Source: Candidatus Babeliales bacterium
Lineage (GTDB): Bacteria; Babelota; Babeliae; Babelales; Vermiphilaceae
NCBI GenBank assembly: GCA_963743635.1
Contig: CAVUQO010000002.1
Location: 416,001-480,000, forward strand
DNA length: 64,000 bases
Direction of reading: 5' to 3'
The notes below the pieces were generated by a model. That model did no database searches. It was not told where the DNA came from and saw nothing but the letters and a program-made list of their open reading frames with translations. Positions within the stretch are counted from its first letter, which is position 1. Each line of letters begins with the position of its first letter. Positions 2,540 through 8,127 of this stretch are shown one piece after another. Made by a program: the position numbers and the translations under genes.

Positions 2540-3107
2540 TTTCCTATTAGCCCTCGGGGCATATCTCATTGGATCAATTCCGACTGGATATTTGATTGCA
2601 AGATTGGCTGGTATTGCCGACATTCGCAAGCATGGTTCGGGTAACATTGGTGCAACAAACGTTGCGCGGGTACTCGGGATCCATGGTTTTTTTATAGTAT
2701 TGTGTATAGATGCGTTGAAAGCGTATGGGTATTTGCAGTATGTACGCAGCCTGGTGCCTGACGATAACTACTTGTCTGCGATTGCAGTTTTGCTCTTAGT
2801 AGGAAATGTTTATTCCCTCTTTCTGGGATTTCGTGGCGGAAAAGGAGTTGCCACGAGTGTGGGTATTATTGTGGCATTGATGCCCGGATTATTTGCGTCT
2901 ATGTTTGCGGTATGGTTCCTAGCGTATGCGCTTACCAAAACGGTGGGGATTGCATCAGTGGCTGGATGCGTTGCGTTTCCAGTATTGACATGGTATCAAT
3001 ATGGGGCAATGCACGTGTACGTTCCGCTTAGTATTTTGCTTGCAGTATCATTACTGCTTACACACCGCGCGAACATAGCTCGGTTTTTTGAGACTCTTTC
3101 TTCTTAA
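2526..3107 (+). CDS. plsY: Glycerol-3-phosphate acyltransferase PlsY
   Basis: YLIGSIPTG, DIRKHGSGNIGATNVAR, FRGGKGVAT, HRANIAR. Confidence 0.95.
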   Translation: MTQYNFLLALGAYLIGSIPTGYLIARLAGIADIRKHGSGNIGATNVARVLGIHGFFIVLCIDALKAYGYLQYVRSLVPDDNYLSAIAVLLLVGNVYSLFLGFRGGKGVATSVGIIVALMPGLFASMFAVWFLAYALTKTVGIASVAGCVAFPVLTWYQYGAMHVYVPLSILLAVSLLLTHRANIARFFETLSS

Positions 3108-3951
3108 AATGCGACTTCTCAATGAGTCCAGCCTTCATCATTTCTTTTACGAGATCATCGTATTTACGGTGATCACATAAAAACCCTTTAATGCCGACAG
3201 CTTCTGCGCCACGCAGATTCTCATGTTGGTCGTCAATCAAATAACAGTCTGCAGGGTTAAGATTATGTGCAATTAAGGTGTACATATAAATGTCTGGATA
3301 AGGCTTAATCGTTTTGATGTCAGCCGAAATAATCGTGCCATCAAATAGATTGAAAATATCAGGATATTCTTTTTTAAGCAGCTCAATTAACTGAGTGTCC
3401 ATATTGGAAATGAGATATACCTCATGCCCCCGTTTTTTACATGCACGTACTAATTCGATACCATCCTTGATGGGCTTATAAATATCGGCCCGAACTTCAG
3501 GATCAAAGATGAGTGTGGTGATTTTTTTCATAAGCAGCATTTCTGTCTTGCTCTCAAAGAATTTGTTCTCGACTGCAAGAACGTCAATATGATTATGGAT
3601 ACGAGTGATAACTTCATAACTATCAATGGTACCGGTCAACCAGTCACGCATGATCTTAGGCAGTACAACATTCTTATGCAATGGCATAAGATCGTCGTGT
3701 GCATGATGCTCAGGATCAAGTTCGTGTAAGAGTTTGAATAATTTTTCTTCAAGCTCATCAGTGTTACCACCTTTAATCATATATGCTATGATGCTGCCGC
3801 CCAAATGCTGTAATGATTTCATTTTACCCAAACGAAAGAGTACCCCATTCAAATCGAATAGAATAGCCGATGTTTTGGGGGGTGTGAATGATGCACACAA
3901 GAAAAGCATGAGTGTGCAGAAAAGCCCTGTAGATAGTAATTTCTTCATCAT
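3058..3951 (-). CDS. HAD-family hydrolase with N-terminal signal/anchor
   Basis: Motif I FDLNGVL, ISN, KPYPDIY, IDD..N..GA..VGI. Confidence 0.85.
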   Translation of the reverse strand: MMKKLLSTGLFCTLMLFLCASFTPPKTSAILFDLNGVLFRLGKMKSLQHLGGSIIAYMIKGGNTDELEEKLFKLLHELDPEHHAHDDLMPLHKNVVLPKIMRDWLTGTIDSYEVITRIHNHIDVLAVENKFFESKTEMLLMKKITTLIFDPEVRADIYKPIKDGIELVRACKKRGHEVYLISNMDTQLIELLKKEYPDIFNLFDGTIISADIKTIKPYPDIYMYTLIAHNLNPADCYLIDDQHENLRGAEAVGIKGFLCDHRKYDDLVKEMMKAGLIEKSHFKKKESQKTELCSRGV

Positions 3952-4188
3952 AGTCGTTCTCCTTTAACCCTGTAATAGGGTATATTATAGTTATAGTATA
4001 CCATATCCCTATATAATTTCAATATGAAAAGATTTTTGGTTCTTAACCGGCCATTGGTGGCTCATTTTGAGGCTGTTTATACCTGGAAAAGGGGTGAAAA
4101 AGGGGTTAAAAAATGGCCAAAGAGGGGCCTTTTGAAGGATTTTCGGTGAAAAGGGGTGGGGATCCCTGAAAAGAGACCTTTCTCAAGC

Positions 4189-4219
4189 AAAAGAGGCACC
4201 CGATTGAGGCGCCTCTTTT
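4189..4219 (-). terminator. Rho-independent terminator, copy 1 of 3 (also 4837-4867, 5498-5528)
   Basis: AAAAGAGGCACC-CGATTG-AGGCGCCTCTTTT hairpin, identical downstream of each of three small genes. Confidence 0.8.
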
Positions 4220-4245
4220 AGTTTGTTCTCTATAAGATGTATTGC

Positions 4246-4539
4246 TTATTTTCGCACTACGTCTTTTACGTCTTCGATAGCTTCCATTTTTGCTTCATAA
4301 CGCTTCTGTTCTTCAGGTGTTAGTGTGCCTGCACGGCGTAGTTCTGCAATTTTATCTAAACAAGCATTAAATTCAGCTTCTAACTCTGCTAGAAATGTCT
4401 GTTTTTGTTCAGCAGTCATAGGCGAGTTTGCTCGTTTCATTTGAGCTTTTACGCGTCTTTCATCGGTAGAGTTCATTGCCAATACTGATGCGCTGTAACC
4501 CACAAGGGCAACCAAAGCCATTAATTTTAGTATCTTCAT
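4246..4539 (-). CDS. Small secreted helical protein, cassette 1
   Basis: MKILKLMALVALVGYSASVLA|M signal peptide; AGGAGA RBS. Confidence 0.85.
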   Translation of the reverse strand: MKILKLMALVALVGYSASVLAMNSTDERRVKAQMKRANSPMTAEQKQTFLAELEAEFNACLDKIAELRRAGTLTPEEQKRYEAKMEAIEDVKDVVRK

Positions 4540-4587
4540 ATTGTTTTTCTCCTAATTTATGAAGATTAATATATAACTATCAATTAC

Positions 4588-4618
4588 CAGCATAGGGGAA
4601 AAGGCCCGTTGAAATCAA
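4588..4618 (-). promoter_or_regulatory. Putative sigma70 promoter repeated in each cassette
   Basis: Minus strand TTGATT-N18-TATGCT ~50 bp upstream of the ATG; conserved in all three units. Confidence 0.5.
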
Positions 4619-4886
4619 TGGTTTAAGTCTTTTTTTTAATTGAATGTGCTTTCAGAGCGGCTATCCGAAGGTAAAAGTGCACTAAATCCATCTATGCAGG
4701 GCTTTTATGGCAGGTTTGGACAGGTTTGGATCCCTGGGGAATTCGGATATGAGGGCGCATCACGAATTCATCATTTTATGGTATAAGGATTTTGGGGGAA
4801 AGATTGGGATCTATGAGAAAGAGACCGTTCTCAAGCAAAAGAGGCACCCGATTGAGGCGCCTCTTTTAGTTATTATTCGCGGTGTA

Positions 4887-5204
4887 TTAGATGGTGTGTG
4901 GGAAAGCGAATTGTGCTTCATTAAGAGCGTCATTTCTCTCATCCCAGCGTTGTTTTAAAAGCTTTTGTTCTGGAGTTTTTCTTTCTTCTGCAGTCGGCGC
5001 TTTTGCTTTCTTATATTCTTCTAATATAGCGTCTTGTTCAGCTTGGATTTCTGCCAAAAGCTTTGCTTGTTCTGCTTTCGTGTAAGCTGCTTTTGCTCTC
5101 TTTAGTAGATCGGCTGCATGTGCTTTATCTGCTGCAGTCATTGCTAACGCTGATGACCCGCAACCCACAAGGGCAACTAAAGCCATTAATTTTAGTATCT
5201 TCAT
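4887..5204 (-). CDS. Small secreted helical protein, cassette 2
   Basis: MKILKLMALVALVGCGSSALA|M signal peptide; same RBS. Confidence 0.85.
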   Translation of the reverse strand: MKILKLMALVALVGCGSSALAMTAADKAHAADLLKRAKAAYTKAEQAKLLAEIQAEQDAILEEYKKAKAPTAEERKTPEQKLLKQRWDERNDALNEAQFAFPHTI

Positions 5205-5567
5205 ATTGTTTTTCTCCTAATTTATGAAGATTAATATATAACTATCAATTACCAGCATAGGGGAAAAGGCCCGTTGAAATCAATAAATCGTTTTTTTTTT
5301 TGCACATTTGGCTGCCAGAGCAGTTATCTGAAGGTCAAAGTGCGCGAAAATCGTCTACGCAGGGCTTTTATGGCAGGTTTTGACAGGTTGGGATCCCTGG
5401 GGAATTCGGATATGGGCGCATCACGAATTCATCATTTTATGGTATAAGGATTTTGGGAGAAAGATTGGGATCTATGAGAAAGAGACCTTTCTCAAGCAAA
5501 AGAGGCACCCGATTGAGGCGCCTCTTTTAGTTATTATTCGTGATGTATTAGAAGGTTGAGGGTGATA

Positions 5568-5936
5568 CTACCACGTTTCCCTAACCACGCTTGGCCAATT
5601 GTCCAATTCTCCCTGCAACATCATTCGGGTATTCCTGACTTCCGCATATATACGCTGAAGTGCCATGAGTTCCCTGAATTGTCCACTTACTGCAGTTACT
5701 GGAGTCTCATTCATAAGTTTAAATGCTTCATCTTGTACGATGCCTGCCTGCTGAATAGCGTACGTTACCATATTCTTGTCTCTGAAACCCAGAGGCGGCT
5801 TGAGGCTCTCTTGCGCAAGACGTGTAACTTCTTTGGCTGCTGCCTCTAGCCTTTGGACGTCTTCTTGGGTCACTGCGACGATAGCTTGACTGCAGCACAC
5901 CAGTGCCACTAACGCTATTGATTTTAGTATCTTCAT
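5568..5936 (-). CDS. Small secreted helical protein, cassette 3
   Basis: MKILKSIALVALVCCSQAIVA signal peptide; same RBS. Confidence 0.85.
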   Translation of the reverse strand: MKILKSIALVALVCCSQAIVAVTQEDVQRLEAAAKEVTRLAQESLKPPLGFRDKNMVTYAIQQAGIVQDEAFKLMNETPVTAVSGQFRELMALQRIYAEVRNTRMMLQGELDNWPSVVRETW

Positions 5937-6184
5937 ATTGTTTTTCTCCTAATTTATGAAGATTAATATATAACTATCAATTACCAGCATAGGGGAAAAG
6001 GCCAGTTGAAATCAATGATTCAAGGATTTTTTTTAATTGAATGTGCTGCCAGAGCCGATATCCGAAGGCAAAAGTGCACGAAAATCGTCTGCGCAGGGCT
6101 TTTATGGCAGGTTTTGACAGGTTGGGATCCCTGGGAAATTAGGATATGATACCCCATCACGAACCGATCATTTTATGATATAAT

Positions 6185-6349
6185 GAAACGCTCAACGGGT
6201 TAAAACCCGTTGTTTCGCGCTAAGCTTACTGAAATACCCAGGCTTCGCTAATACTTCGAAGTAATACCTCAGGAAGTATTTTGCTTCGTCGGGTTATTCT
6301 ATTCGCTTACATCCACGCGCTAAAGCACGTGGTTTTCGCGACCTAGAAT
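6185..6349 (+). mobile_element. Non-coding ~165 bp palindromic element, family A copy 1 (MITE-like)
   Basis: GAAACGCTCAACGGGTTAAAACCCGTTG ... CCACGCGCTAAAGCACGTGG ... CGCGACCTAGAAT; homologous copies at 28482-28647 (inverted) and 38102-38327. Confidence 0.8.
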
Positions 6350-6391
6350 AAAACTAATACCCAAGGATCGATTTTTATAAAGGAATGTGCC

Positions 6392-8127
6392 GTGAAATTT
6401 ATTGAAGTTGCAGAGTGTTTTTCTCGCATAGAGGAAACCAGTGGGCGTGTAGAAATTACCAAATTATTGGCTGATCTTTTTAAAAAGGCGCGGCCGCATG
6501 ATGCTGAAATTATCGTTAATCTCGCGATGGGGCAGTTGAATCCCCCTTATATTGGCACACAATTTAATATCGCAGAAAAAAGCATAATCAACGTCCTTGC
6601 TGAGTTTCTGGGCGTTACCGATGAAACGATTAAACGGCACATCAAAACATCGGGCGATCTTGGGTTAGTGGTCATGGATTATGAATGGCCTGCCGATGGC
6701 GGTTTGACCGTTCTGCAAGTCTATGAGGCGCTGCATCATATTGAAAAAATGAGTGGGACTGGTTCTGTAGAAGAAAAAGCAAAAAATATACGTGAATTAA
6801 TCTGGTAATCTCACGTTCCGTTGAAGCAAAATATGTGTTGCGCGTTATTTTGGGTAAATTGCGTCTTGGTTTTTCTGATATGACGATTGTTGATTCCTTA
6901 TCTTGGATGGAAGCGGGCGATAAATCATTGCGCGGTATTATCGAAAATGCGTATAACGTCTGCGTTGACCTCGGGCTTATTGCATTCGAATTCAAAGAAA
7001 ATGGCATTGACGCCGTTGAACGCATGAAAGTGCATATTGGTATTCCGATTCGTCCTGCTGCCGCAGAGCGTCTACCGACTGCGCGTGCGATTATTGAAAA
7101 ACTTGGCGTCTGCGTTGCGCAGCCAAAACTCGATGGGTTCCGATTACAAATTCACCTTGATAAACGCACTGCACGCGCGAAAGTGCATTTTTTTTCCCGC
7201 AATTTAATCGATATGTCCCACATGTTTCCTGATCTTACTCACGCAGTTGCCAGTCTTGACGTGACCGACATGATTTGTGAGGGCGAAGCGATTGTCTACG
7301 ATCCAAATACCAACACATTCCTGCCATTCCAAGAAACCGTAAAGCGCAAACGTAAGCATGGCATCGAAGAGGCAATTGAAAGCTTTCCGTTGCGCGTTTA
7401 TCTGTTTGATCTTTTGTATTTGAATGGTAAAGAGATGATGAGCAAAACGCATGAAGAGCGGCGCGATGCATTGCTCAAGATCTGCAAGCACAATACCGAT
7501 AGTCGGATTGCGGTGATCGATGAAAGGGTGATGAGGACGCCAGAGGAGCTAGAAGCCGATTTTAACGAAAACATTACCGCCGGTTTGGAAGGCTTAGTTG
7601 TGAAACGCCCCGATGCGATTTATCAGCCCGGCAAACGCAACTTTAATTGGATCAAACTTAAGCGACAAGAAGAAGGCCATCTTGAAGATACGATCGATTG
7701 CGTAATTTTGGGTTATTACCATGGCGCGGGCAAACGTGCTTCATTTGGTATCGGCGCATTCTTAGTCGGTGTTTACAACAAGCATGACGATTGCTTTGAA
7801 ACTATTGCAAAAATTGGCACCGGCATGACCGATGAAGAATGGATTATGCTGCGCAAAAAGTGTGATGAACTCGCGGTTGAAAATCGCCCTCGCAATGTGG
7901 TTTGCGCTAAAGGATTGTATCCTGATGTTTGGGTTTCGCCGGAAATGGTTTGCATGGTACGCGCTGACGAGATTACCGTATCTCCGTTACATGCAGCCGG
8001 CCAATCGGAAAAAACATTAGGATATGCATTACGTTTTCCGCGCTTTATGGGTTATCGTATTGATAAAAGTCCGCGCGAAGCTACGACGGTCAAGGAAATT
8101 GTGGGCTTGTATAAGGATCAGTTTTAG
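6392..8127 (+). CDS. ATP-dependent DNA ligase (DNA-binding + adenylation + OB domains), one frameshift near 6800-6830
   Basis: Adenylation motif QPKLDGFRLQIH, EGE, FDLL, EGLVVK..Y.PGKR..WIKLK, LRFPRF; N-terminal domain in 6392-6808. Confidence 0.93.

Follow-up and report, generated by a model that had tools for sequence, protein, structure and literature searches.

Introduction

How can three neighboring genes be framed by almost identical DNA when the proteins that they encode have little or nothing in common? This question is raised by a tandem locus in a 64,000-nt stretch of DNA (hereafter the window) from a member of the Babeliales (Dependentiae) with a 1.45 Mb, 85%-complete genome. The Babeliales are known as intracellular parasites of protists. 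The minus strand of the window carries three tandem units, with the genes u1 (4246-4539), u2 (4887-5204) and u3 (5568-5936). An initial annotation took the locus to be a standard expression and export frame, the contents of which (the payloads, i.e., the mature protein parts) are swapped by recombination in the flanks or driven by strong diversifying selection. The reading preferred here, to which we assign a probability of ∼0.7, is that the frame undergoes concerted evolution whereas the payloads within it are old and stable, with the units being separately promoted and terminated genes for helical Sec-exported proteins.

Anatomy of the tandem array

All array features lie on the minus strand. 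The array ends 3′ in a tail (4135-4169) downstream of terminator 1, which corresponds, in diverged form, to the ∼35 nt immediately after terminators 2 and 3 (repeat family D8; 4135-4151, 4785-4801 and 5446-5462). In unit 1, a terminator-like hairpin (4170-4223; family D5, 100%) lies downstream of u1, a 97-aa gene from the ORF list with the signal peptide MKILKLMALVALVGYSASVLAM (codons 1-22, 4474-4539). The u1 promoter and 5′-UTR (4540-4634) contain a TTGATA −35-like element (4583-4578), a TAAATT −10-like element (4559-4554) and the RBS AGGAGAAAA (4553-4545), and an A8 tract is present at 4630-4637; a promoter scan gave 9/12 matches for this −35/−10-like site. The two elements are separated by 18 nt, and TATTAAT is an alternative candidate for the −10 element. 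The non-coding upstream block (4635-4817) includes the arms GAATTCG and CGAATTC at 4739-4745 and 4763-4769.

Unit 2 repeats this order with a second hairpin copy (4818-4871; D5, 98%) downstream of u2 (105 aa; signal MKILKLMALVALVGCGSSALAM), a promoter and 5′-UTR at 5205-5299 (TTGATA 5248-5243; TAAATT 5224-5219; RBS 5218-5210; A11 5291-5301), and an upstream block at 5300-5478 with its arms at 5402-5408 and 5424-5430. Unit 3 comprises the third hairpin copy (5479-5532; families D5 and D4, the latter 143 nt at 97%), with homology to the unit 2 copy that extends to ∼5556 (78 nt at 95%), u3 (122 aa; signal MKILKSIALVALVCCSQAIVAV), a promoter and 5′-UTR at 5937-6031 (TTGATA 5980-5975; TAAATT 5956-5951; RBS 5950-5942; A8 6027-6034), and a block at 6032-6186 that stops at the repeat-unit boundary and has degenerate arms. 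Outside the units, and abutting the upstream end of the array, is a dispersed MITE/REP-like repeat of ∼175 nt (6180-6355, not assigned to a strand), with ∼30 further loci in the genome (BLASTN E<1e-8) and a word depth of up to 106 in run X1. The same internal junction occurs twice (4784/4785 and 5445/5446). Judged by its junctions, the locus is built like a tandem array and not like a series of inserted cassettes.

The array is surrounded by housekeeping genes (for SecD/F-like, CDP-alcohol phosphatidyltransferase, PlsY, HAD hydrolase, ATP-dependent DNA ligase, OMP-decarboxylase-family, GidB and MatE proteins). As first noted from the sequence, no integrase is adjacent, and the three PF00589 matches of the genome are on contigs C3 and C1, off the window's contig.

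The frame is conserved and the payloads are not

The three units were compared in 30-nt windows. Identity was 1.00 from −73 to ∼+15 in all three unit pairs, fell to 0.2-0.5 by +60 and returned to 1.00 at the terminator, in agreement with the earlier observation that the flanks are more conserved than the payloads. The 54-nt hairpin is 98-100% identical among its three copies; a 66-nt segment that includes it folds at −25.6 kcal/mol (z −3.5 vs. 200 shuffles) with a 14-bp stem, and a simple terminator scan made no call because just four T follow the stem. The upstream blocks (∼180 nt) are 85-91% identical (160/176, 130/148 and 131/155 aligned bases; z 37-45 vs. shuffles). The palindromic arms occur in units 1 and 2 and have been lost in unit 3.

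Payload DNA of u1 and u2 is barely alignable (z 4.8) and saturated with substitutions, and that of u3 is unalignable with either (z<1). At the protein level, u1 and u2 are distant paralogues: their mature parts are homologous (Smith-Waterman z 7.2, 0/500 shuffles), with 21/72 residues in common. The mature part of u3 was similar to neither of them (z −0.6 and −1.3). The weak likeness of u1 and u2 and the unrecognizable u3 had both been pointed out in the initial annotation.

The window DNA was found in 10 sequencing runs of four studies, with no RNA run among those listed. Contigs from runs of two studies covered 4194-4543, 4850-5208 and 5511-5950 with 0 differences; they cross the joins between payloads and flanks, and therefore these junctions are no assembly artefact.

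The variable sites of the flanks are mosaic: 81 sites at which one unit is the odd one out fall into 29 runs, a clustering reached in 0/10,000 permutations, with some of the site clusters adjoining indels or sitting at homology ends. One 235-nt contig of run X2 joins the unit 3 block to the promoter-proximal part of unit 2, skipping one unit; instead of a conversion, it may reflect a variant with a deletion. Two further contig joints (4852 to 6246 and 5513 to 6246) most likely come from a half-terminator beside a copy of the dispersed repeat at G000:C3:442.6-442.8k.

Conserved 5′ regions invite comparison with phase- or antigen-variation loci of the Mycoplasma vsp/vpma/vlp type, in which such regions would be recombination or slippage sites that switch a surface protein. 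According to the accessible part of PMC2268961, M. agalactiae vpma and M. bovis vsp are likewise clustered genes with a conserved 5′-UTR and conserved signal codons ahead of unrelated mature parts, and a homopolymer (A8, A11 and A8) lies upstream of each promoter here. The vpma/vsp loci, however, encode lipoproteins, the signals of which have an invariant Cys, and they use a single promoter that is moved by site-specific inversion of the Xer1 type, with the recombinase encoded next to them. In the array the signals are type-I-like, with a lipobox-like LVGC in u2 alone among the three units; each unit has a complete promoter, all three point in the same direction, no inverted repeats connect them (palindromic terminators aside), and no recombinase is nearby. 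The A tract precedes the −35 element instead of separating −35 from −10, and no tract-length variants were listed in four runs, with thin cover there. Phase variation at this locus is hence a very improbable explanation.

The ∼180-nt upstream block might be conserved for a function of its own: it could encode a small RNA, act as a leader or bind a regulator, with the palindromic arms serving as operator. A genome-wide search with the block gave one ∼70% copy outside the array (C3:57691-57895); it belongs to the dispersed paralogue G000:C3:57894, with which similarity extends to ∼−230 and includes short conserved islands. The 7-bp arms pair in both minimum-energy and centroid folds. Against this possibility, an Rfam search of 3900-6500 gave 0 matches (E up to 1), the folds of the unit 2 block were not significant (z −1.35 and −1.04), and neither unit 3 nor the dispersed paralogue has the arms. 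Since the block is upstream of the promoter, the transcript of the gene probably does not include it. A functional block is a slim prospect, though a better one than phase variation.

A shared head defines a gene family

The part of the frame that precedes each payload, the head, consists of the promoter, the RBS and a predicted signal peptide (MK.LK..ALVALVCYGQS.LAM). The promoter is sigma-70-like with the invariant core TATTAATCTTCATAA, the RBS is strong, and the putative type-I signal ends in ..LA↓M. With an nhmmer model of −70..+65, 18 loci were detected at E<1e-9, 8 of which are seeds of the model, and 17 of the 18 have intact ORFs; at E<0.01 there were 27 loci, 26 of them with an ORF starting MK. 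Read from the sequence, the signal in the 17 core members follows the pattern MK.LK, then LMALVALVG, then S.LA↓M. The 15-mer promoter core occurs 26 times with ≤2 mismatches, and a head gene is downstream of 13 of these occurrences. The mature parts are nearly all unrelated (BLASTP E<0.01 in 7/325 pairs). A second pair of head genes, G000:C2:551922 and C2:554693, is 93% identical from −123 to +72 and has unrelated payloads. One distant head variant, with a weak match (nhmmer E 0.0016), carries RING and ankyrin domains.

An exact-pattern scan for the promoter core gave 0 loci in genome contigs, a set that may leave out the genome studied here. In metagenome contigs it gave one locus, on a phage-like contig without a signal peptide, which was discarded as a chance match.

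The terminator and the upstream block are restricted to the array, except for a half copy (terminator; G000:C3:442608-442645) and the ∼70% block copy, so that most family members lack a common 3′ frame. Synonymous-codon identity among dispersed signal peptides is moderately raised (0.50 vs. 0.34 expected), which argues for selection, not conversion, behind most of the family-wide likeness.

The head evolves in concert and the payloads do not

A metagenomic relative encodes an orthologue of u1 (P0005, 90%) and one of u2 (P0002, 76%). In the mature part, the orthologues share 66/75 (88%, u1/P0005) and 60/83 residues (72%, u2/P0002), and the paralogues share 29% in each genome (21/72 for u1/u2 and 23/78). 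Because P0005 and P0002 are called from an upstream ATG, the predicted proteins read through the 5′-UTR. This read-through is identical in the two (MLVIDSNVLIFIKKEKKN+MKILKLMAIVALVG), and the corresponding translation in the window is MLVIDSYILIFIN*EKNN+MKILKLMALVALVG for u1 as well as for u2. Over 32 codon positions (18 of the 5′-UTR and 14 of the signal), there are 6 differences between the genomes, at the same sites, and 0 between paralogues, the relative's heads being available only in translation, from its two predicted read-through proteins. Beyond codon 14, it is the orthologues that group with each other.

Heads that are alike within a genome and differ between genomes at shared sites point to concerted evolution of the frame by gene conversion. 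Paralogues are closer within the tract and orthologues are closer outside it (for the relative, in translated sequence), the flanks bear a mosaic signal, and the tract boundaries are sharp. We show that the head evolves in concert, and that the payloads were stable over the genomes and studies compared. The proposed expression and export frame with recombination in its flanks is thus borne out by the heads, which are identical per genome, and by the mosaic sites, but ongoing payload swapping is at odds with the orthologues and with the 0 differences between studies. Strong diversifying selection on the payloads is not supported either, given the orthologues of u1 and u2, a homologue of u3's own and the absence of differences. 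The initial annotation had named the same payloads in relatives as the outcome that would speak against it, and two of three payloads are so retained.

If a plain tandem triplication had taken place recently, and diversifying selection had then driven the mature parts apart very quickly, before the flanks had diverged, this would account for the tandem-duplication anatomy with an identical internal junction twice, for the homology of u1 and u2, and for a u2 orthologue that is more diverged than the u1 orthologue (72% vs. 88%). However, u1 and u2 had separated before the relative's lineage branched off, yet within each genome their heads are identical, and u3 resembles neither u1 nor u2 in DNA or protein (z<1) but has homologues of its own. 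Payloads as young as the flanks would keep synonymous sites alignable, and 0 payload differences were found across two studies. The orthologue comparison already contradicts a triplication of this kind, which we regard as having next to no likelihood.

The searches that concern u3 and more distant genomes were as follows. A homologue of u3, P0009, is found behind the same head elsewhere (z 6.7). No u3 orthologue was found in the relative, the third head gene of which, P0007, carries a different payload; P0002, P0005 and P0007 are probably on one contig of 47,390 nt. Some payload turnover may therefore occur. Fused forms are present in relatives: P0008 has the head, a u3-like domain and a P0007-like domain, and P0006 has the head, another segment and a u2-like domain. 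Unit 2 DNA had 0 matches in 40 relatives, and P0006 had 0 at E<=1e-5 when searched against another 260 genomes from the order. A profile of u1, u2 and the orthologues gave three weak matches in 79 same-family genomes (E 3.6e-4 to 8e-3), the best of which was rejected as a head gene on inspection.

These observations bear on a true cassette system, in which payloads would be swapped, gained and lost between fixed frames via conserved flanks, a form of Sec terminal reassortment. Such a system would fit the relative's 47-kb contig, which apparently combines the u1 and u2 orthologues with P0007, the payload of which is not u3-like, as well as the fused P0008 and P0006, the X2 contig that omits exactly one unit, and the identical heads before unrelated payloads elsewhere in the genome. 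It is difficult to reconcile with the orthologous retention of two of three payloads and the invariance of all three in two studies, with the lack of a recombinase nearby, with a terminator and block limited to the array, which leaves most of the family with no common 3′ frame, and with core payloads that have no head-less paralogues in the genome. We consider a true cassette system unlikely, though the strongest of the four alternatives weighed to this point.

An integron array, which likewise has short units with conserved boundaries, unrelated contents and one orientation, was rejected: there is no adjacent integrase, and a promoter-like site and a terminator are present in every unit. In place of attC sites, the boundaries here consist of ∼410 nt of promoter and signal, and the payloads are vertically inherited. 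The array is not a site-specific cassette system.

The payloads are predicted to be small helical proteins

AlphaFold2 predicted three helices for u1 (pLDDT 80.6; 24-37, 43-70 and 75-96), with low pLDDT at residues 1-19, and a three-helical mature part for u3 (pLDDT 80.0). Pfam gave merely sub-threshold coiled-coil-type matches for the three payload proteins. With the u1 and u3 models, Foldseek returned no PDB entry at E<=0.001 and generic helical bundles only, and the ESM Atlas gave generic "secreted protein" or hypothetical clusters only. A tblastn search of 26 mature parts against their own genome found no head-less paralogues of the small payloads. As far as sequence comparison goes, the payloads appear to be stable genes with their own orthologues.

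Discussion

The preferred reading, concerted evolution of the frame, may be set out as follows. The trio would be three adjacent genes, each with its own promoter and terminator, for small all-helical Sec-exported proteins of 75-100 aa (mature), and would be part of a lineage-specific set of ∼17-26 genes defined by the common head alone. Selection on promoter, RBS and signal function would maintain motif-level conservation among the dispersed copies. Between neighbors, gene conversion would overwrite ∼410 nt, namely the terminator, the intergenic block, the promoter and the first ∼14 codons. The start and end modules of the trio would be near-identical because copies overwrite each other's flanks, and conversion would stop at the payloads because old, divergent payloads leave no homology.

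The genome encodes two signal peptidase I proteins, LspA, two secretins and two T2SS-E ATPases; FHIPEP and VirB4 gave no match in the 85%-complete genome. The head signal peptide would be cleaved by signal peptidase I, the head genes are probably co-regulated via the common promoter, and onward release may involve secretin/T2SS-type machinery or vesicles. The lifestyle of the phylum and the one member with RING and ankyrin domains suggest a role of the head proteins at the host interface. In Chromulinavorax, a cultured member of the Dependentiae, signal peptides are reported on 44% of CDS, enriched in ORFans and ankyrin proteins, and the accessible part of that source (PMC6561590) makes no mention of a shared head.

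A literature search for a conserved signal peptide together with gene conversion and paralogs gave eukaryotic cases only. Phytoplasma SVM genes ride on potential mobile units. The SVM family (PF12113; SAP11 and SAP54) resembles the head family in its stereotyped N-terminal signal, its differing secreted effectors and its reduced, host-dependent and Sec-reliant genome (PMC8026896, accessible part). The head, unlike SVM, includes an exclusive promoter, the trio also shares a terminator, and PF12113 was absent from u1-u3 (hmmscan, E up to 1) and from 23 other head proteins (E up to 0.01). The Staphylococcus aureus lpl cluster also consists of tandem paralogues for secreted or host-interaction proteins; as far as the accessible part of the report goes, recombination occurs at a conserved mid-ORF region, and variation in the intergenic parts tracks that of the variable regions beside them (Tsuru and Kobayashi 2008, PMC2568036). 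In contrast, it is the intergenic region together with the signal that is conserved and homogenized here, and the mature part varies over its entire length.

In terminal reassortment, which Stavrinides, Ma and Guttman are said to have proposed in 2006, type III effectors reportedly combine a common promoter and N-terminal signal with unrelated C-terminal parts. The array differs in having a Sec signal peptide instead of a type III signal, in a genome in which FHIPEP and VirB4 were not found. More tentatively, and with the odds against it, the head could serve host-directed proteins both as an address label and as a regulon switch: an exclusive promoter and a stereotyped signal would mark a co-expressed secretome of ∼20 or more proteins, and recombination would move the label to new payloads and shuffle or fuse modules. 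If true, such a label would be a Sec-pathway counterpart of type III terminal reassortment.

A conserved frame around divergent content is, by itself, no proof of a cassette-exchange machine. The locus is a clean natural case in which regulatory and export sequences undergo concerted evolution among the copies, and the cargo evolves independently of them. We know of no account of how the Dependentiae, which are widespread and almost uncultured protist parasites, select and deliver host-directed proteins. The head, being exclusive to ∼20 mostly orphan secreted proteins, provides a simple sequence handle by which candidate effectors of this lineage can be listed, and it supplies a promoter and a signal that are testable in reporters.

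Anatomy of the Array and Conservation of Its Frame

The array occupies positions 4135-6186 on the minus strand and consists of three head-to-tail units of ~650, 661 and 732 nt. Each unit carries, on this strand, a non-coding upstream block (~180 nt), a promoter-like site that agrees with the consensus at 9 of 12 positions in a promoter scan (TTGATA-N18-TAAATT), the RBS AGGAGAAAA, an ORF (u1, 4246-4539, 97 codons; u2, 4887-5204, 105 codons; u3, 5568-5936, 122 codons) and a terminator-like hairpin with a 14-bp stem followed by TTTT. The three ORFs start with MKILK(L/S)(M/I)ALVALV.., and these basic/hydrophobic/small-x-small N-termini, as read from the sequence, would be Sec-type signals. The homopolymer tract 5' of each promoter varies in length between units (A8 at 4630-4637, A11 at 5291-5301 and A8 at 6027-6034, coding strand).

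Both internal unit junctions (4784/4785 and 5445/5446) have the same sequence. Past the last terminator comes a diverged tail of 35 nt (4135-4169), and at the upstream end of the array the block of the first unit breaks off near 6184, at the corresponding point, where it gives way to a dispersed repeat. These features are those of a tandem array rather than of inserted cassettes. The repeat (6180-6355, ~175 nt, MITE/REP-like) is present at ~30 other genome loci (BLASTN E<1e-8), some of them directly 5' of head genes elsewhere (G000:C3:205978-206193 and C3:492162-492197), and its bin has a word depth of 106 and 68 in sequencing runs X1 and X2, respectively. Beyond it, an ATP-dependent DNA ligase (6392-8127) is split into two ORFs in different frames (6392-6808 and 6835-8127). 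Contigs from three runs have one base fewer at 6802 and at 6814, which would place both parts in one frame, and 24 substitutions over 6259-7995; these would reflect either a strain difference or assembly indel errors. Left of the array, 3000-4199 had 0 differences from the run contigs.

When the three units were aligned, the terminators were identical at 53-54 of 54 positions, the promoter/5'UTR at 95-98% of aligned bases (in 30-nt windows, exactly 1.00 between -73 and +15), the upstream blocks at 85-91% and the signal codons at 79-88%. The mature DNA of u1 and u2 scored z 4.8 over shuffles, and that of u3 vs. u1 or u2 z <1. The mature u1 and u2 proteins share 21 of 72 residues (z 7.2, 0 of 500 shuffles), and no similarity of mature u3 to u1 or u2 was found. 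Segment-wise identities and the 30-nt identity profile thus bear out the initial annotation, in which the frame was far more conserved than the payload (the mature part). Two runs of different studies, one from peat and one from soil, gave contigs that cross from every payload into the adjoining flanks with 0 differences and end within the shared flanks, as expected of a true repeat.

The GAATTCG/CGAATTC arms of the upstream block can pair; as first noticed, they are kept in units 1 and 2 and degenerate in unit 3. Neither unit 3 nor the block-sharing paralogue elsewhere in the genome retains them. The block had no match in Rfam and folded no better than shuffles. A location inside the conversion tract best accounts for the high identity of the block within the array; short islands common to the block and C3:57894 may be regulatory.

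Concerted Evolution of the Heads

In a word-index search of 5.8 billion proteins, u1 and u2 each had a single close relative (P0005, 90%, and P0002, 76%, respectively), and u3 had none. The longest contig listed for P0005, P0002 and a third metagenomic protein, P0007, is 47,390 nt in each case. P0005 and P0002 are both called from an upstream ATG and therefore contain the translated 5'UTR: both read MLVIDSNVLIFIKKEKKN-MKILKLMAIVALVG (5'UTR-head), and u1 and u2 in the same frame both read MLVIDSYILIFIN*EKNN-MKILKLMALVALVG. Over 32 codon positions the paralogues are identical within either genome, and 6 shared positions differ between the genomes (the relative being read as translation). From codon 15 on, the orthologues group together; mature parts are identical at 66 of 75 and 60 of 83 residues between orthologues, and at 21 of 72 and 23 of 78 between paralogues. 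Since orthologues are alike in their mature parts and paralogues in their heads, the u1/u2 duplication predates the split of the two organisms, and the heads have been homogenised afterwards, the signature of gene conversion. Along the flanks the odd-one-out unit shifts in blocks, from unit 3 to unit 1 and then to unit 2 (81 sites, 29 runs), a mosaic reached by 0 of 10,000 permutations.

Dispersed family members resemble each other at the motif and amino-acid level, with same-codon use at identical residues of 0.50 vs. 0.34 expected, so that functional selection, not conversion, accounts for most of the family-wide likeness. The locus itself is a tandem trio of a lineage-specific head family, with a frame homogenised by gene conversion.

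Payload Types in Related Bacteria

When 1.84 billion representative proteins were searched with a profile built from u1, u2 and their orthologues, there were eight matches at E<=0.001: three own-genome proteins, one unrelated repetitive protein and four same-head proteins. Among these four, P0009 has the head and a u3-like part (mature parts z 6.7, 0 of 500 shuffles), and P0007 the head and a distant u2-like part. In P0006 the head is followed by ~120 other residues and then by a u2-like domain, and P0008 combines a read-through 5'UTR and the head with two domains, one P0009-like and one P0007-like (70%). Each payload type is thus conserved behind the same head among uncultured relatives, where one ORF sometimes fuses two types, and the payloads are ordinary, stable genes. 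Against stability, however, the third head gene of the relative (P0007) is not u3-like. Furthermore, a 235-nt X2 contig (depth 4.6) joins 6045-6221 to 5255-5301, skipping one unit length, with the upstream block of unit 3 (7 differences from the window) and the A-tract and promoter-proximal part of unit 2; it can be read as a two-unit array or as a conversion variant in a diverged strain. These two observations indicate some unit loss, gain or exchange, ongoing or past.

DNA searches of species-representative genomes for the family gave 0 of 40; 79 same-family representatives gave three weak matches, the best of which, the one examined, was not a head gene, and a P0006 search of order-level representatives gave 0 of 260.

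Of the earlier interpretation, one part is supported, recombination in the flanks; payload swapping and strong diversifying selection are not supported.

The Head Family across the Genome

The genome (1.45 Mb, 42% G+C, three contigs, 85% complete), whose nearest GatA relatives, at 70%, belong to Candidatus Babeliales and Dependentiae (Vermiphilaceae-type) MAGs, was searched with an nhmmer head model (-70..+65, eight seed copies). At E<1e-9 there were 18 loci, 17 with intact ORFs, and at E<0.01 27 loci, 26 with an MK-starting ORF. The signal is stereotyped (MK[ILNTM]LK..A[LI][VI]ALVCYGQS.LAM), and 13 of the 26 genomic occurrences of the 15-mer TATTAATCTTCATAA (<=2 mismatches) precede a head gene. 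Nearly all mature parts are unrelated, with just 7 of 325 pairs reaching BLASTP E<0.01. The gene pair C2:551922/C2:554693 shares -123..+72 at 93% and nothing beyond.

Terminator and block are nearly private to the array genome-wide, the exceptions being a half terminator (G000:C3:442608-442645) and a ~70% block copy upstream of G000:C3:57894. At ~5 kb from the head gene at G000:C3:57691-58373, the sole dispersed one sharing the long upstream block with the array, lies a secretin gene (C3:63572-64048), and another follows at C3:68298-68780. Head genes form a second cluster at G000:C2:549373-555466 (5-6 genes). Three of its members have a ~35-nt insertion between promoter core and RBS, and one member, near C2:550451-550630, is broken, with a 33-codon ORF and with one TGA and one TAG within the match.

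No array protein (0 of 3) had a Pfam domain above cut-off. Among 23 other head proteins one did, a distant head variant with a RING finger and ankyrin repeats (E 5e-16 and 7e-16). Eukaryote-like parts occur on distant head variants at G000:C3:500939-501679, C3:629129-629980 and C2:552284-553996; EDAELREAMRLSLEQ-like stretches in two other such proteins presumably resemble ubiquitin-interacting motifs.

Predicted Export and Known Systems

AlphaFold2 models of u1 (pLDDT 80.6) and u3 (80.0), built from shallow alignments, each show three helices following the signal, and Foldseek found no match to either at E<=0.001, only generic helical bundles. The genome encodes two signal peptidases I (side by side, G000:C3:523091-524866), LspA, two secretins and two T2SS-E-type ATPases; FHIPEP and VirB4 had no match in this 85%-complete assembly. 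In Chromulinavorax, a cultured member of the Dependentiae, 44% of CDS carry signal peptides, ORFans and ankyrin proteins are enriched, and effector export is proposed to proceed by Sec (PMC6561590). The models, the export gene content and this secretome suggest that the head genes may be co-regulated and their products exported by Sec, with a putative role in the envelope or on the host.

We rejected an integron, a vsp-type switch and PF12113, whose defining tests the locus fails. Terminal reassortment of type III effectors is among the closest analogues. So are the phytoplasma SVM signal family (PMC8026896), the Staphylococcus aureus lpl cluster (PMC2568036) and the Mycoplasma vpma/vsp loci, whose genes conserve the 5'UTR and signal while their mature parts are unrelated (PMC2268961). 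The interest of the locus is twofold: (i) an exclusive promoter-plus-signal label on ~20 orphan, putatively secreted proteins of a Dependentiae bacterium; and (ii) direct two-genome evidence for concerted evolution.
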